Below, in pieces: positions 1 to 42,126 of a DNA stretch of 55,409 nt (the stretch's first letter is position 1; each line of letters opens with the position of its first letter). Location: the IMG/VR virus record IMGVR_UViG_2531839531_000009; one strand, given 5' to 3'. The position numbers were made by a program, and so were the translations under genes. Source of the stretch: a virus. Taxonomy: Duplodnaviria > Heunggongvirae > Uroviricota > Caudoviricetes. Under the pieces are notes generated by a model. That model worked only from the letters and a program-made list of their open reading frames with translations, was not told the DNA's origin and did not search any database.

Positions 1-70
1 TCACAAAAACGTAACCACACTGCCAATAGCCAGAGAAATATAATTTTTTTTGCGATTTTTTAGAACTGAC

Positions 71-130
71 ACAACGTGAAACAACGAGACACCACGACGA
101 ACAACGGCGAACAATCTGGAACAAACTTGA
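71..130. repeat. six direct repeats phased at 10 bp (AC[A/C]A-initiated decamers) upstream of alpA
   Basis: Read directly: acaacgtgaa / acaacgagac / accacgacga / acaacggcga / acaatctgga / acaaacttga in consecutive decamers. Confidence 0.5.
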
Positions 131-410
131 TTAACATCTGACTGACACCCTAAAAAGTTGATTTTCAGTCGTTTTACTGGCTTTTTGTACATTGGCGAAT
201 CACTCTTAAAAACATGTAAAAAAGGCGTAAAAACAGAATTTTATGCCTTTGCACCACAATGAATTAAAAGAGTTTTTATTCTCATTACCACACTTCTGTA
301 AAATGACCGCCGCCAGTGTTTGCCATTCCATAAACACCCTGACACAATCCGACGCACCACAACACAATAGGACACCAAATAACTCTTTAAGAAATATCAA
401 AGGGGGAATT

Positions 411-599
411 GTGTTAAGCACAGATCGCTTTATACGTGAAAAAGAATGTCAGCAACTTACAGGCTTGAGCCGTTCATGTCGGTACCGCCTGGAAAAAACC
501 GGACAATTCCCATCACGGCGTAAGCTCGGCGGTCGTTCCGTTGGCTGGTCTTTATCCGAAGTTCTGGCATGGAAGGAAAGCTGCGAGGCAGTTCACTAA
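411..599 (+). CDS. alpA: AlpA-family HTH transcriptional regulator
   Basis: GTG start inside ORF 243..599; ...LSTDRFIREKECQQLTGLSRSCRYRLEKTGQFPSRRKLGGRSVGWSLSEVLAWK resembles AlpA-type regulators of P4-like and PICI elements. Confidence 0.7.
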   Translation: MLSTDRFIREKECQQLTGLSRSCRYRLEKTGQFPSRRKLGGRSVGWSLSEVLAWKESCEAVH

Positions 600-651
600 T
601 CAGGCTGGCGGCACACAGCCGCCACCCATCCACTAATACAGAGATCTAACC

Positions 652-1842
652 ATGAATACTGGATATTCTCCCGAACAAGGGCGGGGCTTCGTTCGTCCTG
701 AAAAACAGAATCTGCAAAATTTTGCCGAAATTATTCCGGTTATTTCCGGCCTTACTGGCGGGAGTGAAACCAATATTGTTAACGCCAGAGCGTTGCAGAT
801 GTTTGATGATAAAAAGGGAGTAAATTTAACTTACACCCCTGACGGCAATCAGAATATGAGCATTATCTCTGAGTCAGGTTTCTACAAACTAATAAAAACA
901 AAAAGCGCCCCGTTGCCGGAGCGCCTTTGTGAACAATTAACCTACTGCGCAAAAAATGAATCTGAGCAGTGGGATTATATCAACCGTGTGGCGAAGCGCC
1001 ACAATTGCCGGATAACAGGCAAAACAAAGGCCACCCGCAACGGTGGCCCCTCGACACAAGCTACACGTTATCCCCAACGCATGAGCATCACCAACAATGC
1101 CACATTTGCGGCTGGTGGGCAATGTGATCAGTCAGATTTGGTTCGTTCCAAGGTTTGCAACGAGAGCTTTTTCCTGTGCTCTTTAAGGAATTTCTCAAGA
1201 GCAAAAGCACATGGCGCGAATCTTTCTGATTCATGCTCTATCTTTCTGCGCCGTCTTTTCCGTGCCGGTGATAATGTTTTGGTCAATTCTTTATCGGTCA
1301 TTGTGTTGTCCTGCATAGCAATGCGCCGTAATACCTTACACCACGGCGCTGATGGTGATTACTCTGGTTCTTTGGTCTTGCGACGCTGGAGTTCTTCGCG
1401 TGCAACGGTGACAAGCTGCCCGATTTCTTCCGCTGCTTTGATGCCGATTTGTTCGACCTTAGCCAGGGCATCCAGTGACGACACAAGGGGATTTTCTCCG
1501 CTGCCTTCTGCTTGGCGGCGGGCTATTTCTCCGCGCATGGCGGTTACGATAAATCCGGCATTGCTTTCGCCGTCCAGCTTAACGGATTCCATCCCTTGCA
1601 TAACATCTAGTGGGACTCTGACAGTTGTCAGTTGTGATTTTGCGTTTTTGTTAGCCGTTGCCATTTCTGAAACTCCTAATCATCGGTGTGTTTCAGTATA
1701 CACAAAAAAAGAAATACAAAAAGCCTTGACGTGTGTTTCATGCGCTCATAACATGAAACACACCAAAAGAATTGTTGAAATACAAAGAGCAACGCCCCGC
1801 AGTGCCGGAAACACATACGGGGCGTCTAACCACCAACGATAG
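652..1842 (+). CDS. hypothetical protein; 3' extent uncertain
   Basis: 396-codon open frame with no recognisable SD; the C-terminal third is low-complexity and overlaps a well-supported minus-strand gene at 1359..1664. Confidence 0.3.
   Translation: MNTGYSPEQGRGFVRPEKQNLQNFAEIIPVISGLTGGSETNIVNARALQMFDDKKGVNLTYTPDGNQNMSIISESGFYKLIKTKSAPLPERLCEQLTYCAKNESEQWDYINRVAKRHNCRITGKTKATRNGGPSTQATRYPQRMSITNNATFAAGGQCDQSDLVRSKVCNESFFLCSLRNFSRAKAHGANLSDSCSIFLRRLFRAGDNVLVNSLSVIVLSCIAMRRNTLHHGADGDYSGSLVLRRWSSSRATVTSCPISSAALMPICSTLARASSDDTRGFSPLPSAWRRAISPRMAVTINPALLSPSSLTDSIPCITSSGTLTVVSCDFAFLLAVAISETPNHRCVSVYTKKEIQKALTCVSCAHNMKHTKRIVEIQRATPRSAGNTYGASNHQR
1359..1664 (-). CDS. hypothetical small protein
   Basis: 101-aa ORF with protein-like, balanced composition; AGGAG about 9 nt upstream of the ATG on the minus strand. 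Confidence 0.45.
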   Translation of the reverse strand: MATANKNAKSQLTTVRVPLDVMQGMESVKLDGESNAGFIVTAMRGEIARRQAEGSGENPLVSSLDALAKVEQIGIKAAEEIGQLVTVAREELQRRKTKEPE

Positions 1843-1861
1843 CAAGATTATCGAGGCTGCT

Positions 1862-2068
1862 ATGAGAAATCATACCATACACCCGCAAGGGCGGGACTCG
1901 CACAACCTGAATAAATACATCTGGCGTTTTATCGCCCTGAGTACGGCACAACCGCGCGTGATTACCATTGAGGCCACCAGCGAACAGGAAGCCCGTCAGC
2001 AATCACCGGCTGGCTGCGTGATGGTATTCGCCGCCCGTATTCGTCAGGGGGTGCACCATGTGCAATAA
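1862..2068 (+). CDS. small protein, possibly Icd-like
   Basis: Internal ATG of ORF 1772..2068; ...NKYIWRFIALSTAQPRVITIEATSEQEARQQSPAGCVMVFAARIRQ resembles what I recall of Icd-like proteins of P4-type elements; weak. Confidence 0.3.
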   Translation: MRNHTIHPQGRDSHNLNKYIWRFIALSTAQPRVITIEATSEQEARQQSPAGCVMVFAARIRQGVHHVQ

Positions 2069-2282
2069 CACCCGTCCGGACGCAGCCGCCGAAGCAATCA
2101 AAACACTGATTGATATTTCTGTTATCGCGGACAGGGCGCATAAGCACGCTACCAGTGAAACAGAATATGCCGGGGCTTTCGTTCCTCATTCACTGGCTGT
2201 AATGCAACTTAGTGCTGATATGGCACTGAATGAGGCCAGCAAAATTATCATGGCTGATATGGAGGTGGTGAGCCATGAATAA
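2058..2282 (+). CDS. hypothetical protein
   Basis: ORF whose ATG follows a GGGGG run and overlaps the upstream stop; part of a tightly packed + strand operon. Confidence 0.35.
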   Translation: MCNNTRPDAAAEAIKTLIDISVIADRAHKHATSETEYAGAFVPHSLAVMQLSADMALNEASKIIMADMEVVSHE

Positions 2283-2487
2283 TAATGAAGCGCACTTATC
2301 TGTAGTGCTGAATGTGCCGTCAGATTATACGGGGCGCGTACTGGTGTATCTGGAAAAAGGCCGGGTTAAATGCCAGTGCCGTTTAATGGAAAACGAATTT
2401 ATCAGCACTCTTGCGGGATTTTCTGAAATGCTCACTAAATCGGGTGTTAGTGCAGACCAGTTACGCGGGGGCGATTATGCGAAATAA
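2275..2487 (+). CDS. hypothetical protein
   Basis: ORF with GGAGG-like SD (ggaggtggtgagccATG); translationally coupled to neighbours. Confidence 0.35.
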   Translation: MNNNEAHLSVVLNVPSDYTGRVLVYLEKGRVKCQCRLMENEFISTLAGFSEMLTKSGVSADQLRGGDYAK

Positions 2488-2695
2488 ACATGATATTGAA
2501 GACCTGGCATTTGAAGCCCTGCACTCTGCGAAAAAAATCAGGGAAGTCGTCAATATGTGGATGAACAGCCTTAGCACCGATGAATCCGATAGCAGAGAGG
2601 AAATTCTTATTTCTTTGTTGTTAGACCTGGCAAATACACAGGTTTCTCTGACATCTGATATTGAACTCGCCGCTAAAAATCTGCCTCTGGAGTAA
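2477..2695 (+). CDS. hypothetical protein
   Basis: Internal ATG of ORF 2411..2695 preceded by GGGGG (gcgggggcgattATG). Confidence 0.35.
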   Translation: MRNKHDIEDLAFEALHSAKKIREVVNMWMNSLSTDESDSREEILISLLLDLANTQVSLTSDIELAAKNLPLE

Positions 2696-2701
2696 AAAAA
2701 C

Positions 2702-3001
2702 ATGAAACAGAAAAATTCTGGCTTTACTGCCAGTGGTCTCCCTCGGCCTGAAATCCGCCCCGGCGATATTTTCCGGGATAACTACGGTGGCACGGTAACG
2801 ATTAAAAGCGTGGCGGGGCGGTGCGTTACTTACCGCCGTGATGGGTACGGCTATGACTGCGTGATGCCTGCTTATCAGTTCCGGCGTGATTTTTCACTGA
2901 TACAGGCCACACCACGCAAACAGCCCACCAGCAACGCAAAGGCACGGGCAAATATTCAGAAAATGAAAAACATGATTAACGCATTCAGGGGCAAAAAATG
3001 A
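2702..3001 (+). CDS. hypothetical protein
   Basis: 99-aa ORF; its stop overlaps the ATG of the replication gene (ATGA). Confidence 0.4.
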   Translation: MKQKNSGFTASGLPRPEIRPGDIFRDNYGGTVTIKSVAGRCVTYRRDGYGYDCVMPAYQFRRDFSLIQATPRKQPTSNAKARANIQKMKNMINAFRGKK

Positions 3002-4413
3002 AACTGGCACCGAACTTAAAAAAACAGCCACACGACAAAATGACCGAAGTCATTATTTTTGCGGGTAGTGATGCCTGGGCGCACGCGAAACAGTGGCAGG
3101 AACAGGACGGGCGACTTGCTGGTGATAACGTCCCGCCTGTATGGCTGGGAGACAGCCAGCTTGACGAACTGGCAGACCTGAAAATTATCGACGATGGTCG
3201 CTATTGTGTCCGGCTGTACAAGGCAGGCCACATCAAGCCGTCAAATATTAATGCTATCGGGCAAAAGCTGGCGGCGGCAGGTGTACGGGATGCGAATTAT
3301 TACCCTGATGGAATGCACAGCCAGAAGCTGGAGAACTGGCACGACTACCTGCAACGGATCCGCGAACAGGCAGAGCGCGGGGAAATACTTACTGACGAGC
3401 AATACAGCCAGCGAAAAACCACGCTACCAATGAGCATTGGATCTGCAGGGTACGACACACAGCTTGATTATGTCGTTAAGGGCGTGATTCCGGCTAATTC
3501 ATTGTGCAGCACATACGGCGCGAGCGGTTCCTATAAATCGTTCCTCGCGTGTTCCTGGGCGTGTCATGTTGCCACTGGCCGTCACTGGGGAGGCCGCAGG
3601 GTGGCGCATGGTTCGGTGATGTATGTTGTCGGTGAAGGTGGCATTGGTGTCCCCCGCCGTATCAAGGCATGGGAAATCGTTAATGATGAACGGGTGGAAA
3701 ATCTGTACCTGGTAAACCGCCCGATTTTTCCGGCAGTCCCGCTTGATGTTGATGAAATGGTCATCGCTTCCCGCCAGGTTGAACGGGAAACGGGTAAACC
3801 GGTACGCATGATTATTCTTGATACGCTGGCGCGTTGCTTTGGCGGTAATGATGAAAATGACGCGCGGGATATGGGGGCGTTTATCCGTGGATGTGACGAA
3901 CTGAAACGCCGCACAGGGGCCACGGTGCTGGTGGTTCACCATTCCGGCAAGGATGAAACAAAGGGGGCGCGTGGTTCCAGTGCATTTCGTGCATCTCTGG
4001 ACGCTGAATACCGTATTCGCCGTGAAGGTGCAGACAGTGAAGCCCTGGTTATCTCCTGCACAAAAATGAAGGACGCGGAGGAACTGAAAGAGGCCGCATA
4101 CGATTTACGTGTGGTGGAGCTTTTTACCGACACTGACGGGGAGTTAATCACGTCGCTGGTTGTTGTGGATAAGCCGCGCCCACCCGTTGAACTGGAGCGC
4201 ATCGAGGAAGCCGGGAACAAGACGGAGAATCATGCCGCGCTATGGGGCTGTATCCGTTCACGCACACAGCGCGGAGATAAATGCACTATTCCGTTGTTGC
4301 GCGATGATATGAAAAAGCTGGGGTATGAGATGAAACACTTCCGGCGCTGGCTGTACAAGCTGGAAGGTGATGGCGTTATTGCTATTGACGGTGATGACGT
4401 GCGCCCACTGTAA
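2998..4413 (+). CDS. replication protein with RecA-like (RepA/DnaB-type) ATPase domain
   Basis: 471 aa; Walker A-like YGASGSYKS and Walker B-like RMIILDTLAR...VLVVHHSGKD; resembles primase-helicase/Rep proteins of satellites and genomic islands. Confidence 0.75.
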   Translation: MKLAPNLKKQPHDKMTEVIIFAGSDAWAHAKQWQEQDGRLAGDNVPPVWLGDSQLDELADLKIIDDGRYCVRLYKAGHIKPSNINAIGQKLAAAGVRDANYYPDGMHSQKLENWHDYLQRIREQAERGEILTDEQYSQRKTTLPMSIGSAGYDTQLDYVVKGVIPANSLCSTYGASGSYKSFLACSWACHVATGRHWGGRRVAHGSVMYVVGEGGIGVPRRIKAWEIVNDERVENLYLVNRPIFPAVPLDVDEMVIASRQVERETGKPVRMIILDTLARCFGGNDENDARDMGAFIRGCDELKRRTGATVLVVHHSGKDETKGARGSSAFRASLDAEYRIRREGADSEALVISCTKMKDAEELKEAAYDLRVVELFTDTDGELITSLVVVDKPRPPVELERIEEAGNKTENHAALWGCIRSRTQRGDKCTIPLLRDDMKKLGYEMKHFRRWLYKLEGDGVIAIDGDDVRPL

Positions 4414-4607
4414 AAAGTGGGTAGTAAAAGTGGGGAGTGTGGGGAATTTAACAAAATTGAAACGTGATTCCCCACTTTCCCACCTGTATATACCCCAAAA
4501 AGTGGGGAATAAAAAACACATTGAAAAACATCACGTTAGAATCACAAAAAAAAGAAGTGGGGAGACGTTGGGTAATTTCAAAAAGTGGGTAGTAAAAGTG
4601 GGGAGCA
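4411..4607. repeat. iteron array (putative replication origin) just downstream of the replication gene
   Basis: 25-bp direct repeat aaaagtgggtagtaaaagtggggag at 4413..4437 and 4581..4605, plus extra AGTGGGGA cores and one inverted copy (tccccactttccc) between them. Confidence 0.6.
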
Positions 4608-4614
4608 GTGAGGA

Positions 4615-4866
4615 ATGACCAGAAAAACCAGAGATAAGACAGCGCCAAAATATAAAGCGTTAGACATGACAGAGCACGCCTTAAAGGTGGCAATCAGAAC
4701 GATAGACCGCCACGCTGGGGAAGGATACGCGAAAGCACACCCCGAACTGATAAGCGCATTCATGACCACGACGGCGGCAAACTTTGCCACGCTGACAGAA
4801 CGGGAGATTGCCGAAGCGGAACAGGTGACAACCATCAACATTAAAACTGGAGAGCAGACAGCATGA
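4615..4866 (+). CDS. hypothetical protein
   Basis: 83-aa ORF starting just after the iterons; stop overlaps the next start. Confidence 0.4.
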   Translation: MTRKTRDKTAPKYKALDMTEHALKVAIRTIDRHAGEGYAKAHPELISAFMTTTAANFATLTEREIAEAEQVTTINIKTGEQTA

Positions 4867-5219
4867 CAGCACAGATAGCGGCTTACGGGCGGCTGGTGGC
4901 TGACCCGCAGTTAAAGACCACCAGCAAGGGTACACAAATGACGATGGCTAGTATGGCGGTCCCCCTTCCGTGCAGCCAGGCAGATGACGGAACGGCGACG
5001 ATGTGGTTATCCGTCCTGGCGTTTGGCAGACAGGCCGACGCACTGGCAAAACACCACAAAGGCGAACTGGTGAGCGTGGCGGGTAACATGCAGGTAAGGC
5101 AGTGGACAGGCCAGAACGGCGAAACGCGGCAGGGCTGGCAGGTTATCGCAGACAGTGTAATCAGTGCCAGAACGGCGCGACCGGGCGGCAAAAAAAGGTC
5201 AACAGGACCAGGCTACTGA
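4863..5219 (+). CDS. putative single-stranded DNA-binding (SSB-like, OB-fold) protein
   Basis: 118 aa; ...WLSVLAFGRQADALAKHHKGELVSVAGNMQVRQWTGQNGETRQGWQVIADSVI has the pattern of short SSB proteins; by eye only. Confidence 0.5.
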   Translation: MTAQIAAYGRLVADPQLKTTSKGTQMTMASMAVPLPCSQADDGTATMWLSVLAFGRQADALAKHHKGELVSVAGNMQVRQWTGQNGETRQGWQVIADSVISARTARPGGKKRSTGPGY

Positions 5220-5503
5220 CGCACTGAACAGGGCAAAACAACAGTCGGGGAATGATGATCCGTACGGCGATAATATACCGTTTTAAATTCTGCAAATAAA
5301 AAAATGCCGGAAGAAAATAGATTTTCCGGCATGCTACATAAATCCCGACCAAAGGAAGTAAATACATTAACACGAATTATCAGCACTGAAGTTGTCACGG
5401 CAGATTTTATACAACATTGCACTTGGTTGCATGTATTCGCATAGCAAATATCGGTGATAGCATATATCCACAATTATTTTTAATGAATGCAAAGAGGATG
5501 CGT

Positions 5504-6544
5504 ATGGTTGATTTATATTCGCCTGCCCAGCTTGTGCAGGTGGCTAATGCTGAAGATGTGCAAAAAAAATTAAATGCGTTGTTTACCAGTTTGTTTTTCA
5601 CTCGCTCGGTAATGTTTGAATCGAGAGACATTATTCTTGATACGATCGACGATCCAAATATCCCGATCGCGGCGTTTTGCTCTCCTATGGTGGGCAGTAA
5701 GGTTTCACGAGATGAGGGATACGAATCAAAAACAATTCGCCCTGGCTATATGAAACCGAAAAGCAGCATTGATCCAAATAAGTTAGCTGTGCGCCCTGCT
5801 GGTGTGTCACCTGAGCAATACAATGCTTTTGGGGCGCGTAATATTAAAGTTAAACAGGCGATTGTAAATCAGGCTAAAGCTATTCGTGCACGTATTGAAT
5901 GGCTTGCTGTTCAGGCAATCACAACGGGGAAAAATATCATTGAGGGCGATGGTATTGAACGTTATGAGCTGGACTGGAATATAAAACCACAAAATATTAT
6001 CACGCAGTCTGGCGGTGCTGAGTGGTCAGGTAAGGATAAAGAAACTTTTGATCCAAATGATGATATTGAGAGCTACGCAGAATTTAGTGAGGGCGTCACT
6101 AATATCATCATTATGGGCGGTAATGTATGGAAGAAATACCGTTCATTCAGAGCGATAAAAGAGGCTCTGGATACCCGTCGTGGTTCTAATTCCGAACTGG
6201 AAACGGCCCTTAAAGACCTTGGTGATTCGGTGAGTTTTAAAGGGTATATGGGCGATGTTGCGATTGTTGTTTACAGCGGACGTTATACCGACGAGGACGG
6301 AACTGAAAAACATTTCCTTGATCCTGATTTGATGGTGCTTGGCAATACGGCTCTTCAGGGGATTGTCGCCTATGGCGGTATTCAGGATCCGGAGCTAATC
6401 CGAATGGGGCTGACTAAAGCCGAACTTGCACCGAAAAACTATATTGTGCCTGGTGATCCGGCTATTGAGTACGTACAAACGCACTCTGCACCACAGCCAA
6501 TACCGGCCCGCATCAATCGTTTTGTTACCGTTCGCATTGGCTAA
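5504..6544 (+). CDS. major capsid protein, lambda gpE family
   Basis: Translation from ATG 5504 (AGAGGA SD) aligns by eye along its length with lambda gpE, e.g. ITQSGGAEWSGKDKETFDPNDDIESYA and LDTRRGSNSELETALKDLG...YMGDVAIVVYSG. Confidence 0.85.
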   Translation: MVDLYSPAQLVQVANAEDVQKKLNALFTSLFFTRSVMFESRDIILDTIDDPNIPIAAFCSPMVGSKVSRDEGYESKTIRPGYMKPKSSIDPNKLAVRPAGVSPEQYNAFGARNIKVKQAIVNQAKAIRARIEWLAVQAITTGKNIIEGDGIERYELDWNIKPQNIITQSGGAEWSGKDKETFDPNDDIESYAEFSEGVTNIIIMGGNVWKKYRSFRAIKEALDTRRGSNSELETALKDLGDSVSFKGYMGDVAIVVYSGRYTDEDGTEKHFLDPDLMVLGNTALQGIVAYGGIQDPELIRMGLTKAELAPKNYIVPGDPAIEYVQTHSAPQPIPARINRFVTVRIG

Positions 6545-6553
6545 GGGGGAGCA

Positions 6554-6895
6554 ATGGCTACTCATTACACTGAACTCATGTCTGGCACTGAAGCACTGGT
6601 TACTACGCTGGGGATATTTTCAGCCAATAAAGGGGTAATACCTGCGTTTACGCCACTGATGCAGGAAGATGCAACTGGTGCGCTAGTGGTATGGGATGGA
6701 ACGAGCGCAGGCAAAGCGGTTTATGTTTCCGCTGTACAAATCGACACAGCGAAAAAAACACAGGCACAGGTTTATAAGACAGGTGTTTTAAATGTTGATG
6801 CTCTGAACTGGCCTGAGTCTGTAAAAGAACTGTCGGCAAAGGTTGCCGCGTTTGTTGGCTCAGGTATTTCTGTTCAGCCGCTGGCTCGTGTGTAA
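6554..6895 (+). CDS. head decoration protein, lambda gpD family
   Basis: 113 aa; TPLM, LVVWDGT, YKTGVLNVDALNWPE and AFVGSGISV match conserved gpD blocks (TPLM, LVAWDGT, YKSGTFRYEDVLWPE, AFAGTAISI). Confidence 0.75.
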   Translation: MATHYTELMSGTEALVTTLGIFSANKGVIPAFTPLMQEDATGALVVWDGTSAGKAVYVSAVQIDTAKKTQAQVYKTGVLNVDALNWPESVKELSAKVAAFVGSGISVQPLARV

Positions 6896-6906
6896 AGGGG
6901 GATACA

Positions 6907-7290
6907 ATGCAGAATCATTACAATGACCTTAAGCCAATTGCCGAAATGATGTATCCGGATCCAGCAGTAGAGGAATTAAAGGCTATTGCTGACAAAATGC
7001 GTTTAAGTGAACGCCTTGTTGATATGAATCAGGTGATGGAACTTACTACCCTTAGCCGTCGCACATTGCTAAACCTTGAGGCTCGCGGAGAGTTCCCCGA
7101 ACGCGTACAGGTTACGGAAGGGCGTAAGGCCTGGTATTTAAGCGAAGTGATCGACTGGATAAACAATATTCCTCGAGCTTCTGAATATTGCCGCGTACCT
7201 GTCCCAAAAAAGCCAGATGCGGCGCTATGCCTCAAGATTGAGCGTGTACGCCGCAATGCACGGGATGGTCGCTATAAGTTGATTGGTTGA
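6907..7290 (+). CDS. second AlpA/excisionase-like HTH protein
   Basis: 127 aa; ...LSRRTLLNLEARGEFPERVQVTEGRKAWYLSEVIDWI is an AlpA-type helix-turn-helix. Confidence 0.55.
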   Translation: MQNHYNDLKPIAEMMYPDPAVEELKAIADKMRLSERLVDMNQVMELTTLSRRTLLNLEARGEFPERVQVTEGRKAWYLSEVIDWINNIPRASEYCRVPVPKKPDAALCLKIERVRRNARDGRYKLIG

Positions 7291-7345
7291 TGAAATTAGG
7301 GCCCGTTCTGGCTGGCGGGTCCTTTCCGGCGATCCGGTAGGCTAC

Positions 7346-7380
7346 GGGGCGGCGACCTTGCGGATTTTCGCTATTTATGA
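7346..7380. other. lambda-type cohesive-end site (cosN-like)
   Basis: ctacgGGGCGGCGACCTtGCGGaTTTTCGCTATTTATGA matches the lambda left cohesive end GGGCGGCGACCT and the following ~20 nt with two mismatches as recalled; lies ~110 bp upstream of the Nu1-like gene. Confidence 0.6.
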
Positions 7381-7491
7381 GCCTTTTCGGGTTGGTGGTG
7401 GTGGTTTTGTTTTTCGCTCTATCTCTATGAATAAAAAGGGAAAGATAACACCAACACACCAACCTGAAACCTTAACTAAGTGGGGATATTG

Positions 7492-8034
7492 ATGAAATCG
7501 CACCTGATGAACAAAAAAACTATGGCGCAAAGCTGCCGCGTAAGTGCGACAGCGTTCGACAAGTGGGGAGTAACTCCCGTTGAGCGTAAAGGCCGTGAGG
7601 CGTTTTATGATGTTGCTAGCGTGATAGACAATAGGGTTAACAATGCAATTAACCAGCTTACAAACGACAAAGGCGAGATTGATGATGATGAACTTTTACG
7701 CGTAAGAATCAGATTGCTGACAGCACAGGCGGAAGCGCAGGAACTTAAAAACGAGCGCGAACGCGGCGAGGTGATTGATACAAAGTTTTGCATCTACGCG
7801 ATTTCAAAACTAGCGAGTCAGATTTCATCAATCATGGACAGCCTCCCGCTCACAATGCAAAGGCGCTTTCCCGATATAAGGCCGTATATGCTGGATGAAC
7901 TAAAAAGGGAAATAGCCAAAGCATGTAACGCATGTGCAAGACTTGACGAAAACCTGCCACAGATACTGGCTGATTACCTGATGGAAACTACCGGAAGCGC
8001 GCCTGAGAAGTTGCTACAGAACAAAGGCGAGTAA
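7492..8034 (+). CDS. terminase small subunit, lambda Nu1 family
   Basis: Conserved blocks shared with Nu1: LTAQAEAQELKNERERGEVIDTKFC, SIMDSLPLTMQRRFPD; start 7492 (GGGG 6 nt upstream) or 7507. Confidence 0.8.
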   Translation: MKSHLMNKKTMAQSCRVSATAFDKWGVTPVERKGREAFYDVASVIDNRVNNAINQLTNDKGEIDDDELLRVRIRLLTAQAEAQELKNERERGEVIDTKFCIYAISKLASQISSIMDSLPLTMQRRFPDIRPYMLDELKREIAKACNACARLDENLPQILADYLMETTGSAPEKLLQNKGE

Positions 8035-8107
8035 CCGCCGCCCCGTAACGGGCCATAATTCCAGGAAGGACCTGACGACACCAGGCTATCAGAGCGATGG
8101 GGGCACA

Positions 8108-8389
8108 ATGACAGAAGCCGAAATACTGCGATTAATCCGCCGCGTTACCGGAATCAGCCAGCAGGCTGACGAACAGGCCACGCAGCCGGACAGCGTGACC
8201 GCTGAAAATTATGTGCGTGTTGTTGCTGAGGTGATGCGCCGTGACGGTATCGAGCTTAACGGCGTGGATATGCGCAACATACGCACCAGAGTTCTGGAGA
8301 TGTTGTCGTACCGTCGCCGCGTGCAGATGTACCAAGAGAAAGAAAAAATTACTTACCACTGGAAGAAGCCGGAACGGTTACGACGTTAA
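8108..8389 (+). CDS. hypothetical protein
   Basis: 93-aa ORF directly after the small terminase gene; no recognisable family. Confidence 0.4.
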   Translation: MTEAEILRLIRRVTGISQQADEQATQPDSVTAENYVRVVAEVMRRDGIELNGVDMRNIRTRVLEMLSYRRRVQMYQEKEKITYHWKKPERLRR

Positions 8390-8395
8390 CTTGTG

Positions 8396-8430
8396 GTGAC
8401 ATACCGTGACGGAGAGTGACACACAGTGAC
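8396..8430. repeat. four GTGAC motifs at exact 10-bp spacing
   Basis: GTGAC at 8396, 8406, 8416 and 8426, immediately after the last island gene. Confidence 0.5.
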
Positions 8431-9163
8431 AAAAAAGACGGTATTTAAATCGGGTGGTGTTTAATACCCCCAGGGGGATAGAAATCCCTACACCTCATTG
8501 CTTATGGGACCGCCCGCCTACCCTTGTTCACATCGCCACAGGTTCGAAAACTTTTTTTGGGAAGGTGTGCACGGGATTGATAGATGAGGTCTATCTATAA
8601 AAAATCACAAAATCCGCGCCATTGCTGGATCCGCCAAAAATCCCCCACCTTACGGCAGACAAAGAAAACGCGAATTATGGGCCTGTTGCAGAGAAAAAAG
8701 GTCTCACTAGTTTTGCGCACCCTAGCATCGAGGTTCGTCAGCCTCCCATCAGCAACCAGATAACTAATCTCGCTGGTGGGCATGATGCCGATATGGGGAC
8801 TTCCATAACGGTTTATCCGTGATCATCCACCAGCTTCATGGCGGATAGCCGGAAAATGATAACGGTATAGCCCGTCGCTTGTGTCTATTTGTTCCGCATT
8901 GTTGCATACAGTGCACCGAACGGTGTAGTTAATGGTGTAGTTAATTTGCGATTTTTAACGTTATTTGCAGCGATGTTTGTTGGTTAAATTCAATAAGTTA
9001 TGCGCATTTAATTATAAATATCGTGAATGAATAATCATGCATAAGCATTTTGCTTAAAATATCGGCAATATTTGGAACTTATTACTGGAATTTTGGGTAA
9101 TACGTTGTTGGACCGACCCGGTCTGGTTATCATATCGCGCTCTTAATTGCGGGAGGATGTAAC

Positions 9164-33328: not shown

Positions 33329-33404
<76 letters not shown>

Positions 33405-33407
33405 TAT

Positions 33408-33482
<75 letters not shown>

Positions 33483-38261: not shown

Positions 38262-39353
38262 ATGAGCAGACCGGACTGGGGGGCGTTGCAGCAGGAGTAT
38301 ATTGCTGAATACACCCGCTCCGGTATATCTCCGGTGGCATGGTGTGAAGCAAGGGGACTGAATTACGCAACAGCCCGTCGTTACATCAAAAAACCTCCGA
38401 AAAATGCGCAGACAGAAATGCGCAAAACTGCGCAAAAAAGTGCGCAGAAAAAATCTGCGCAGACTGCGCAAAAGCAGAACGGAAAATCTCAGAAAAAAAA
38501 GCCAGTATCCGATGCGTGCCTGAATAAGGGCGACACGGAGGAATTTTCGTTCTGTCCCGATGAATTCGGCATCTCAGAGCAGCAGACGAAATTTGCGATG
38601 CTGGTTGCACAGGGGAGAAAACTCGTTGAGGCATATCGCCTGGCAGGATACGAGTCAGAGGGGAATGCGGCCTACGTCACTGCCAGCCAGCTCCTAAGAA
38701 ATCCTAAGGTTTATCGGGCTATCTCATGGTTCCGCAATCAGTACCAGAAACGCTATACCGCAGACCTAGATTTACTGGTGAGTCAGTTGATGGCCATTGT
38801 CCAGGCCGACCCCAATCAGTTGGCACAATTTCGCCGTGTTAACTGCCGTTATTGCTGGGGCGAGAATCATCTCTACCAGTGGCGTGATATTGCAGAATTC
38901 GATAAGGCAGCAGCACAGGCCTCCAGAGATGGCAAACCCGAGCCGGAATATGGAGGCCTCGGCTTTGTTGATAACGCCATACCCAATCCGGATTGTCCGA
39001 AGTGCTGCGGTGAGGGAACGGGACAGCTTTATATGGCTGATACCACTCTGCTTGATGGGGATGCGCGACAATTATATGCAGGGGCAAAGCTCGGGAAATT
39101 TGGTGTTGAGATCCTGCTGGAGGATAAGGCTGCCGCCCGGCGCGAACTTATCAAGCTGATAATGGCGACGAAAGGAGGTTCTGCTAGTGGTGCAACTGAC
39201 AGTCGCAATGATCTGGAGCTTGAAGGACTGAGACTTCGCAACGAAAAGCTGCGCACTGAGATTGAAAACCTCAAAAAAGGCGTGGGTGGTGAGAATAACG
39301 AAATAATTATCCACAACTCTCTGCCGATGCCGGGAGTGGATAATGTCGATTGA
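38262..39353 (+). CDS. putative terminase small subunit
   Basis: 363 aa with N-terminal HTH (GISPVAWCEARGLNYATARRYIKK) directly upstream of the large terminase; contains a short AQK(S/T)AQK repeat. Confidence 0.55.
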   Translation: MSRPDWGALQQEYIAEYTRSGISPVAWCEARGLNYATARRYIKKPPKNAQTEMRKTAQKSAQKKSAQTAQKQNGKSQKKKPVSDACLNKGDTEEFSFCPDEFGISEQQTKFAMLVAQGRKLVEAYRLAGYESEGNAAYVTASQLLRNPKVYRAISWFRNQYQKRYTADLDLLVSQLMAIVQADPNQLAQFRRVNCRYCWGENHLYQWRDIAEFDKAAAQASRDGKPEPEYGGLGFVDNAIPNPDCPKCCGEGTGQLYMADTTLLDGDARQLYAGAKLGKFGVEILLEDKAAARRELIKLIMATKGGSASGATDSRNDLELEGLRLRNEKLRTEIENLKKGVGGENNEIIIHNSLPMPGVDNVD

Positions 39354-40689: not shown

Positions 40690-42126
40690 ATGGCTGAGAT
40701 CGAGATTTCTGTAAATCTCAGTTCTTCGCTGATGCGCATTCTTGAGGCTGAAGAAATTCAGCCGGGAACCGACATTGGCTATGAACTGTGTAAACTGCTG
40801 TGGCAGTACCACCCGCTGGGCGGGAAACTTGTCGAAAAACCCATACTGATGGCGATGTGTAAGCCGCGCCAGTACAACGTGGAGACAGACCCTGACGAGC
40901 GGGTTGTGCGGCGTTTTCAGGAGGTATGGGAACGTATGAAGGTTAACGAGAAGATTAAAAATCTTTTTTTTCTGTCTCGTTGCTACGGTGCTGCAGCGAT
41001 CGGCGTGGGCACCGACAGTGTTTCATGTCGTGAACCGCTTCCGACGTTCGGACTGACAGAAGAGGATGTGTATATCAACGCGTGGGATCCGTTGAACGCT
41101 TCCGGTTCGATGGTGACTGACCAGAATCCAAACAGTCCGTTTTTCCAGGAAGCCAATAAAAAGCTGAAGATTGGCGGAAAAGACTGGCATCCGTCACGCA
41201 CACTAAAAATCTTCAACGGCACACCGATTTATCTGGAGTTTCAGAGTTCATCGTTCGGATTCACCGGGCGAAGCGTATTTCAGCGCGTTCTTTATTCCCT
41301 GAAATCCTATATCAATACGATGGAGGCGAATGATCTCGTCAGCCAGAAGGCGGGCGTACTGGTAGCTAAAGTTGTGCAGTATGGCTCGAAACTTGACGGG
41401 ATCATGGCTGCCGCCACGGGACGAAAAAGGGAAAACGTCAAAGAGGCAAAAAATAAAGGTGTGCTTAGTATCGGGAAGGATGAGGATGTTACCTCGCTGA
41501 ATCTACAAAACATCGATGGTGCGCTAAACGCTGCACGCGACAATATTATTTCCGATATTGCGTCAGGGAGTGACGTTCCGGCGATCCTCATTAAAGAGGA
41601 AGCCTTTTCGAATGGTTTCGGTGAGGGGACCGAAGATTCGAAAGCCGTCAGCCAGTATATCGATGGTGTACGCCAGCAGATTGAACCTGTGATGGATTAT
41701 TTCGAACGCCTGGTGCAGTACATCGCCTGGAACGAGGAATTTTATCAGTCGCTGAAAAATGATTACCCGGACATCATAACCGACGACTATAAAACCACGT
41801 TTTACCAGTGGCGACGTGAATTTACCGCGACGTGGCAGGAGCTGGTGGAGGAGTCGCCGGACAAACGCCGGGAAAGCGACAGTAAAGTGATTCAACAGGC
41901 GATAGCACTTTTCTCTGCCGTGTCGCCACAGGTTGATCCTGAAAACCGTGCCGCCGTCACTGAATGGCTGGCAAGCCTTGTTAATGCCACGCAAACCTAT
42001 GGCGAAGCTCCACTCATCATTGATGTGGGCGCGCTGGCGAATTATGAACCACCGAAGCAGGAGACGCCTGATGGCAATTTCCAGCCGGGCGGGGAGGAGG
42101 AAGAGACGGATCAGGACGCTGTATGA
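40690..42126 (+). CDS. putative portal protein
   Basis: 478 aa directly after the large terminase; acidic C-terminus. Confidence 0.6.
   Translation: MAEIEISVNLSSSLMRILEAEEIQPGTDIGYELCKLLWQYHPLGGKLVEKPILMAMCKPRQYNVETDPDERVVRRFQEVWERMKVNEKIKNLFFLSRCYGAAAIGVGTDSVSCREPLPTFGLTEEDVYINAWDPLNASGSMVTDQNPNSPFFQEANKKLKIGGKDWHPSRTLKIFNGTPIYLEFQSSSFGFTGRSVFQRVLYSLKSYINTMEANDLVSQKAGVLVAKVVQYGSKLDGIMAAATGRKRENVKEAKNKGVLSIGKDEDVTSLNLQNIDGALNAARDNIISDIASGSDVPAILIKEEAFSNGFGEGTEDSKAVSQYIDGVRQQIEPVMDYFERLVQYIAWNEEFYQSLKNDYPDIITDDYKTTFYQWRREFTATWQELVEESPDKRRESDSKVIQQAIALFSAVSPQVDPENRAAVTEWLASLVNATQTYGEAPLIIDVGALANYEPPKQETPDGNFQPGGEEEETDQDAV

Follow-up and report, generated by a model that had tools for sequence, protein, structure and literature searches.

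A full-length lambda-type small terminase gene beside the cos site of a classical phage-inducible chromosomal island at the abgR-smrA locus of Escherichia coli

The left part of a 55,409-nucleotide stretch of DNA (IMG/VR record IMGVR_UViG_2531839531_000009; the whole stretch is called the window here) carries a compact series of genes that a preliminary description, made from the letters alone, had read as a satellite-like island with its own capsid, decoration and small terminase genes and a cos site. The window is a piece of Escherichia coli chromosome, and 8.4 kb of the island sequence was found in ten complete E. coli genomes at 99.7-99.8% identity. Our Pfam and PHROG searches confirmed all of the genes that had been named, namely an AlpA regulator, a run of small coupled open reading frames (ORFs), a single-stranded DNA-binding protein (SSB)-like gene, homologues of the lambda capsid protein gpE and decoration protein gpD, a second AlpA-like gene, and a Nu1-like small terminase (TerS) (Table 1). 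The supposed RecA-like replication ATPase with its iterons was recovered as an AAA_25-type helicase of the RepA family with seven iterons, and the lambda-type cos as a single exact cosN whose cosQ and cosN flanks align to lambda. Two gene starts were revised, because the ORF start at 243 is over-extended and the true alpA start lies at 411, and the capsid gene begins at 5504 rather than at 5417. Genes for a large terminase (TerL), portal, protease, tail, or holin/lysis functions were not found between the ends of the element, either in the ORF list or when the annotated genes and larger ORFs were scanned with Pfam and PHROG, which agrees with the reported lack of large terminase, portal, and tail.

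The integrase expected outside the window lies directly upstream of it. The few codons at the left edge, translated as ...HKNVTTLPIAREI*, form the C-terminus of the 409-amino-acid (aa) integrase WP_001352457.1, which has Arm-DNA-bind_3 and Phage_integrase domains. In NZ_CP106924.1, which is 99.8% identical over the island, this gene directly precedes the island and adjoins abgR; the integrase stands at the island's left end, in the same orientation as the operon. Alignment of both junctions to K-12 revealed a crossover core, ATTAT(T/A)AATATCGTGA, that bounds a 10,399-bp element, and K-12, with its unbroken mcaS-smrA spacer, represents the empty site, placing the island in the abgR(lysR)-smrA intergenic region. 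The attR core ATTATAAATATCGTGA matches the published core ACATTATTAATATCGTGA of EcCIEC2733.1 at lysR-smrA. Because both junctions are defined and the right end lies near 9026, the region is a complete bounded element and not the edge of a prophage. The upstream extension and the comparison with an island-free genome, both suggested in the preliminary description, yielded the integrase, both att cores, and the empty site; the island it had delimited at 1-8440 is real, but its right end lies about 9026 and not at 8440.

These boundaries also bear on whether the region might be part of an ordinary prophage. A full-length lambdoid prophage was rejected, since the 10.4-kb att interval is devoid of TerL, portal, tail, and lysis genes and is flanked by abgR upstream and smrA downstream. 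A cryptic remnant, the decayed end of a lambdoid prophage and not an autonomous satellite, would account for the fact that the capsid, decoration, TerS, and cos sequences are all of the lambda family, but we regard it as very improbable: both att ends enclose only 10.4 kb and the K-12 site is empty, the island order E, D, cos, terS differs from that of lambda, and the top phage match is only 42-48% identical. Moreover, this compact layout is found again at several att sites and in hundreds of genomes, the island genes are under strong purifying selection, and the element has a helicase and iteron replicon of its own.

We assign the region to the classical Gram-negative phage-inducible chromosomal islands (PICIs), in the EcCICFT073/EcCIDi14 family; the island is intact, measures 10,399 bp, and does not represent a new kind of satellite. 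It belongs to this known family because its att site and size are those of EcCIEC2733.1, its Int, AlpA, RepA, and TerS proteins those of EcCIDi14, and its gene order that of EcCICFT073. In SatelliteFinder (PMC10085698), a PICI is modelled from int, alpA, pri-rep, capsid-morphogenesis, and terS components, and the median size is 9.5 kb; all five were found here together with none of the excluded structural genes, and the distance between the att cores is within the classical PICI size range (about 8-12 kb). An AlpA-type regulator sits downstream of int, and a capsid gene is present in 21 of the 29 reference Gram-negative PICIs (PMC10111431). A matching architecture occurs in O157:H7, where it sits at roxA-phoQ, and in other strains at cspD-clpS. 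The earlier impression that the gene set lies outside the known satellite families did not hold, as EcCICFT073 shares the architecture, including c1499 and c1500, EcCIDi14 encodes identical Int, AlpA, RepA, and TerS proteins, and the searches, for which a known satellite family had been named beforehand as a refuting outcome, returned the PICIs. The element is explained as a standard PICI and should not be counted as a new satellite class; its modules are already found in published reference islands, and a full-length terS in the rpp position is its sole under-studied feature.

The misfit to P4-like and capsid-forming PICI (cf-PICI) satellites, on the other hand, had been recognized correctly. 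The encoded capsid protein and TerS recall cf-PICIs, and an AlpA/Vis-like regulator, an Icd-like gene, and an integrase of the P4-type family recall P4, yet membership in either group is extremely improbable. The TerL, portal, protease, head-tail connector, and HNH genes that define cf-PICIs are all missing, and no homologue of Sid, Psu, Delta, or the alpha-primase came out of the Pfam and PHROG scans, which covered the island's annotated genes and larger ORFs, leaving only the Icd-like gene and the AlpA/Vis-like regulator in common with P4.

The gene adjoining cos encodes a complete TerS. Its PF07471 score is 83.8 bits (cut-off 30), its alignment with lambda Nu1 runs from end to end at 37% identity (178 residues; island residues 6-166 aligned with Nu1 3-180), and its best phage match is N15 gp1 (47.6% identity). 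The Rpp proteins of other PICIs lack the C-terminal TerL-binding region of TerS (PMC9026076), and the phrog_57 match of RppA covers residues 7-47 only; unlike the Rpps, the island protein retains the C-terminal region homologous to the TerL-docking part. BLASTP produced no alignment between the island TerS and RppA, and tblastn of RppC against the window gave nothing. A phmmer search of the island TerS against the PDB likewise did not find RppC or anything else of relevance, whereas RppA as the query finds RppC (PDB 6HLK) at 5e-31; this miss reflects the fact that only N-terminal TerS fragments and RppC have been solved and that the island N-terminus is too diverged for phmmer. Among four distinct island TerS sequences, residues 1-60 are 92-100% conserved, while residues 121-180 hold 30 of the 48 variable positions, and a ratio of nonsynonymous to synonymous substitution (dN/dS) of 0.12-0.21 indicates purifying selection on terS.

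At the cos site, the cosQ and cosN blocks align to lambda, to cos1 of EcCICFT073, and to a CFT073 prophage, and the cosB, GGTGGTGGTGGTGGTTTTGTT...ACACCAACCTGAA, is kept across five TerS-type islands and is unlike both the lambda cosB and the Rpp-type cos1. An Rfam scan of the first 12 kb (1-12 kb) returned only a spurious miRNA match far below threshold, overlapping cosB. The capsid-module allele and the terS module meet in a mosaic breakpoint at cosN (about 7300-7360): the sequence to its left groups with IH5 and helper-embedded islands, and the sequence to its right is identical to EcCIDi14.

A packaging route can be proposed from this arrangement, in which the early steps would follow those demonstrated, so far for EcCICFT073 alone. 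A lambda-like helper phage would induce alpA, and AlpA would activate the rightward operon; excision of the island and replication as concatemers would follow, as in the model island, here from an iteron origin served by the RepA helicase, and phage-sized heads would take up its DNA, again as in EcCICFT073. The later steps are suggested by the island's own genes. The N-terminal DNA-binding region of TerS would read the island cosB, and its C-terminal third, homologous to the part of lambda Nu1 that docks on gpA, would recruit the helper TerL, so that a lambda-family TerL would cut the lambda-type cosN of the island and helper procapsids would be loaded with island rather than phage DNA. The packaging limits of the lambda head are well established, and about four genome copies (41.6 kb) would fill a head of that size. 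The binding of cosB and of TerL (gpA) by the island TerS is suggested by the conserved pairing of cosB with the DNA-binding domain (DBD) and by the variability of the C-terminal third. That a lambda-like helper is redirected by the island TerS to the island cos, as the preliminary description had supposed, is the natural model for a lambda-type cos adjoining a Nu1-type TerS, and we lean, if only slightly, toward direct recruitment of the helper TerL by this protein.

The same locus admits a reading in which the element is a PICI but the Nu1-like protein acts as an Rpp, forming a DBD heterodimer with the helper TerS, changing its cosB specificity, and blocking phage packaging, with the helper TerS still needed. 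The island terS occupies the exact slot of rppA in EcCICFT073, directly downstream of cos, its N-terminal region keeps the Nu1 DBD sequence pattern, and Rpp is thought to derive from TerS, with which it pairs via a DBD-DBD interface (PMC6739421). However, the island protein has no detectable similarity to RppA or RppC and keeps its whole C-terminal half, including the TerL-docking homologous region that is missing from Rpps. It is also 11 residues shorter within lambda positions ~47-62, just upstream of lambda TerS residues 65-70, to which Rpp-escape mutations map (PMC6739421). The features that mark the Rpp family, namely homology to RppA, RppB, or RppC, a length of ~135-153 aa, and the lack of a TerL-binding part, were not found in the island protein, and we consider an Rpp-like role unlikely, roughly a one-in-four prospect in our estimation.

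Beyond this island, we tentatively suggest, at somewhat less than even confidence, that in TerS-type PICIs in general the satellite TerS fully replaces that of the helper, a strategy so far undemonstrated for cos satellites, that the DBD-cosB specificity is fixed while a fast-diverging tail docks on various TerLs, and that gpE and gpD may enter or remodel helper capsids. If true, the helper range would be set by the C-terminal tail of TerS, and the combination of a conserved DBD-cosB pair with a variable putative TerL-docking tail offers a testable hypothesis on helper range. The terS allele family (at least 83% DNA identity) is present in 732 of 5426 complete E. coli genomes, including O157:H7, and the rppA allele in 97 of the 5426; in these counts, which exclude RppC-type islands, the TerS-type module seems commoner than the experimentally dissected RppA type. 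In the literature outside subscription-only papers, the module appears to have been noted just as a 'terS homolog'.

Several observations weigh against the packaging model with island TerS. The SSB gene has one extra A in an A-run (about 5189-5196) relative to EcCIDi14, which puts the conserved acidic C-terminal tip ...DDPYGDNIPF out of frame; RefSeq flags the identical lesion as 'frameshifted' in 99.8%-identical genomes, and it might impair replication of this copy. Our search of the same literature turned up experiments neither on this island nor on any E. coli PICI of the TerS type, and induction, helper identity, and TerS-TerL contact are all inferred for this island. The window contains no lambda-type helper terminase, the allele comparison comprises just the four TerS sequences, and, at 37-48% identity to phage TerS proteins, the island TerS may not fit a given helper TerL. 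Taken as a whole, the explanation comprising PICI identity, life cycle, and packaging by the island TerS is nevertheless, in our judgment, very probably the best one.

The capsid genes call for a separate assessment. The island capsid protein is 42% identical to lambda gpE and 55% identical to c1499 of EcCICFT073, and the decoration protein shares 40% identity with lambda gpD and 54% with c1500. In EcCICFT073, neither interference nor transfer changed when c1499 or c1500 was deleted or replaced, and the packaged DNA was all phage-sized (PMC6092414). The notion in the preliminary description that capsids might be built partly from island gpE and gpD thus finds no support in relatives, judging from these mutants. 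The sequence comparisons indicate that the capsid gene is under purifying selection, with a dN/dS of 0.03-0.05 within its own allele group and 0.03-0.20 overall. Because selection is this strong despite the lack of a laboratory phenotype, the capsid and decoration genes do something; these gpE and gpD homologues are conserved PICI genes and must have some role missed by the assays so far. The capsid-decoration-downstream module of the island is a distinct allele, present in at least 365 genomes, with the AlpA-like gene where c1501 stands. The product of that gene is 35% identical to the island AlpA and unrelated to the 137-aa c1501 in the EcCICFT073 slot; the possibility that it is a hidden Rpp was rejected, as it has no similarity to RppA. 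The c1501-type protein shows a weak match (1e-8) to the C-terminal, scaffold-like part of the head maturation protease profile phrog_53, and in the allele seen here its slot is taken by the unrelated AlpA-like helix-turn-helix protein.

Table 1. Island features in the window, numbered from its first nucleotide.
Feature	Position	Strand	Basis or remark
Tyrosine integrase, 3' end	1..43	+	Last 13 codons and stop; remainder upstream of window
alpA, PICI master activator	411..599	+	PF05930 1.3e-17; phrog_2790; RefSeq WP_001352456.1
Probable anti-repressor (Ant/Bro-N) gene remnant	652..1100	+	Weak PHROG matches, ~30 residues only, 1e-5
YlcI/YnfO-family gene	1359..1664	-	phrog_6522 1e-63; RefSeq annotation; divergent
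Icd-like/repressor-like gene	1862..2068	+	phrog_6196 6e-46; RefSeq CDS
Three small overlapping ORFs	2058-2282, 2275-2487, 2477-2695	+	phrog_5146, phrog_340, phrog_2196; RefSeq CDSs
DUF4222 gene	2702..3001	+	PF13973 7e-24; overlaps start of replication gene
Replication initiator, RepA-family helicase, AAA_25 ('pri-rep')	2998..4413	+	PF13481 3e-44; phrog_2850 7e-251
Origin of replication	4411..4616		At least 7 iterons AAGTGGG(G/T)A, both orientations, around A-rich stretch
Conserved 83-aa ORF	4615..4866	+	phrog_1231 4e-50; RefSeq CDS
SSB gene, frameshifted	4863..5286	+	PF00436 8e-17
gpE-family major capsid homologue	5504..6544	+	PF03864 5e-41
gpD-family head-decoration homologue	6554..6895	+	PF02924 2e-15
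Second AlpA-like/excisionase-like winged helix-turn-helix protein, 127 aa	6907..7290	+	PF05930 1.4e-8; phrog_2790 2e-48
cos site	7317..7491	+	cosQ-like block, cosN, island-type cosB
cosQ-like block GGGTCCTTTCCGG	7317-7329	+	Aligns with lambda and EcCICFT073 cos1
cosN GGGCGGCGACCT	7347-7358	+	Single exact lambda cosN
cosB, island-type	about 7390-7470	+	Conserved among TerS-type PICIs
Full-length Nu1-type TerS, 180 aa	7492..8034	+	PF07471 1.3e-23; phrog_57 8e-53, residues 5-176
Terminal 93-aa ORF	8108..8389	+	phrog_1561 5e-56
Tandem (GGTGTAGTTAAT)x2	8921..8946	+	Second copy ~120 bp inside attL
attR core ATTATAAATATCGTGA	9011..9026	+	True right end; junction alignment against empty K-12 site

The replication module conforms to that of other PICIs, in which an origin downstream of pri is a hallmark (PMC6092414; PMC10111431). 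The RepA helicase is identical to that of EcCIDi14 (WP_000761761.1). The motif AAGTGGGKA occurs seven times in 4415-4604, against ~0.66 matches expected in the whole 55-kb window, and the observed window total of nine was matched by none of 100 shuffles. Two further exact copies of the iteron, AAGTGGGGA, lie outside the origin, at 7478-7486 in the terS leader over the likely ribosome-binding site and at 7561-7569 inside terS; the former is also present in an island with a primase-type replication gene and may be coincidental.

Near the ends of the element, a 26-bp direct repeat, CGGTGTAGTTAATGGTGTAGTTAATT, was considered as the att site and rejected, because alignment to K-12 puts the ATTAT(T/A)AATATCGTGA junction ~100 bp further out on each side. 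The tandem (GGTGTAGTTAAT)x2, preceded by a conserved stretch of ~40 bp, does not vary among PICIs at three att sites (phoQ, clpS, and smrA), and it is probably an integrase arm-type binding site, lying inside the element and away from the junction. A 2018 PICI catalogue gives the 26-mer tandem as EcCIDI14's 'att site core' and has a similar tandem for the yejM islands (PMC6092414); the listed 26-mer is probably not the crossover site. Directly after the stop codon of the 93-aa ORF, four GTGAC motifs with exact 10-bp spacing (8396-8430) may form a phased protein-binding array, which is common to EcCIDi14 and absent from the O157, IH5, and CFT073 islands.

The regulatory and accessory genes follow the family pattern. 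The role of AlpA was established in EcCICFT073 (PMC6092414). The slot between alpA and ylcI (600-1359) contains the Ant/Bro-N-like remnant and, on the minus strand, a 62-aa ORF without annotation (1128-1316; phrog_21027, 2e-14), and in related islands it holds a BRO-N pseudogene or an abortive-infection (Abi) gene. A 396-aa ORF at 652-1842 was dismissed as spurious, having no Pfam match, running antisense to ylcI, and containing just the ~30-residue Ant-like remnant. The YlcI/YnfO gene is in place in EcCICFT073, EcCIDi14, PA45B, IH5, and the helper-embedded island and is unannotated in the O157:H7 island. The first of the three small overlapping ORFs is 12 bp (4 codons) shorter than in NZ_CP106924.1, owing to an in-frame indel. 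In all PICIs compared, DUF4222 lies upstream of pri/rep and the 93-aa ORF at the right end.

Further to the right, the window contains a Rac-site prophage (about 15185-55409) with an integrase adjoining ttcA and a recE-like exonuclease VIII, a small terminase of the Terminase_2 type (38262-39353), and a portal of the Phage_portal_3 family (40690-42126). ARAGORN located tRNA-Thr(TGT) and tRNA-Gly(TCC) within it (33329-33482). This prophage was considered as a helper and set aside, as a Terminase_2-type TerS with portal_3, rather than the Nu1/gpA type, does not make it an evident cos helper.

Comparison with characterized elements places the island among close relatives and separates it from more distant ones. 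The reference island EcCIDi14 (Table S1 of Fillol-Salom et al. 2018, PMC6092414), from E. coli clone D i14, matches 76% of the region at 98.8% DNA identity. The two islands have identical Int, AlpA, YlcI, Icd-like, RepA helicase, and TerS proteins, and their cosB and right-end sequences are identical as well. EcCIDi14 differs in carrying another allele of the capsid-decoration-downstream module (about 55% aa identity), an additional ORF of 68 aa, and, where the window island has the AlpA-like gene, a 137-aa gene of the c1501 type; its insertion site is an IS110 transposase gene and not abgR-smrA. EcCIEC2733.1, the source of RppC (Table S1, PMC6092414), occupies the same lysR/abgR-smrA site with the core ACATTATTAATATCGTGA and is of similar size (10.5 kb); compared by its published description, it encodes the 153-aa RppC, whereas the window island has the 180-aa TerS and no Rpp homologue. 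The helper-embedded PICI of the 11capE type (PMC10111431) carries the same capsid-decoration-AlpA-like module allele at 94.7% DNA identity but lies inside a lambdoid prophage capsid gene, with no annotated terS and a different integrase. In NZ_CP195347.1 (1378-12770), a PICI with this module lies within the major capsid gene of a lambdoid prophage, which is the helper-embedded arrangement already published. The cf-PICI EcCIEDL933 shares the int/alpA/rep regulatory family and also encodes a capsid protein and TerS (10.1101/2022.09.08.507074); cf-PICIs differ in additionally having TerL, HNH, portal, protease, and head-tail connector genes and small capsids of their own, and none of these genes is present in the window island.

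In terms of packaging strategy, the pac-type Staphylococcus aureus pathogenicity islands (SaPIs) SaPI1 and SaPIbov1 likewise use their own TerS, paired with the helper TerL, on a satellite-specific packaging site (PMC6092414; 10.1101/2022.09.08.507074), a parallel that for the window island is drawn from sequence. SaPIs differ in their headful (pac) packaging, in a separate Ppi that blocks the phage TerS, and in having unrelated proteins; the window island is of the cos type, and no Ppi homologue was seen in it. EcCICFT073 presents the same order of int, alpA, ylcI, icd-like gene, small ORFs, DUF4222, rep, ori, SSB, capsid, decoration, cos, packaging-specificity gene, and 93-aa ORF; it encodes the putative capsid protein c1499 and the head decoration protein c1500 (PMC6092414), and, as in the window island, lambda-type cosQ and cosN are combined with a non-lambda cosB. 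Nevertheless, it has a primase-type replication gene instead of the RepA-helicase type, two cos sites instead of one, a perC gene that is absent in the window, and an att site at ycfD-phoQ. Above all, the gene downstream of its cos1 encodes RppA (144 aa), with a TerS-like DBD only, where the window island encodes a TerS of full length. Rpp, a truncated mimic of TerS, depends on the helper TerS to reach TerL, whereas the TerS of the window island is proposed to do so directly.

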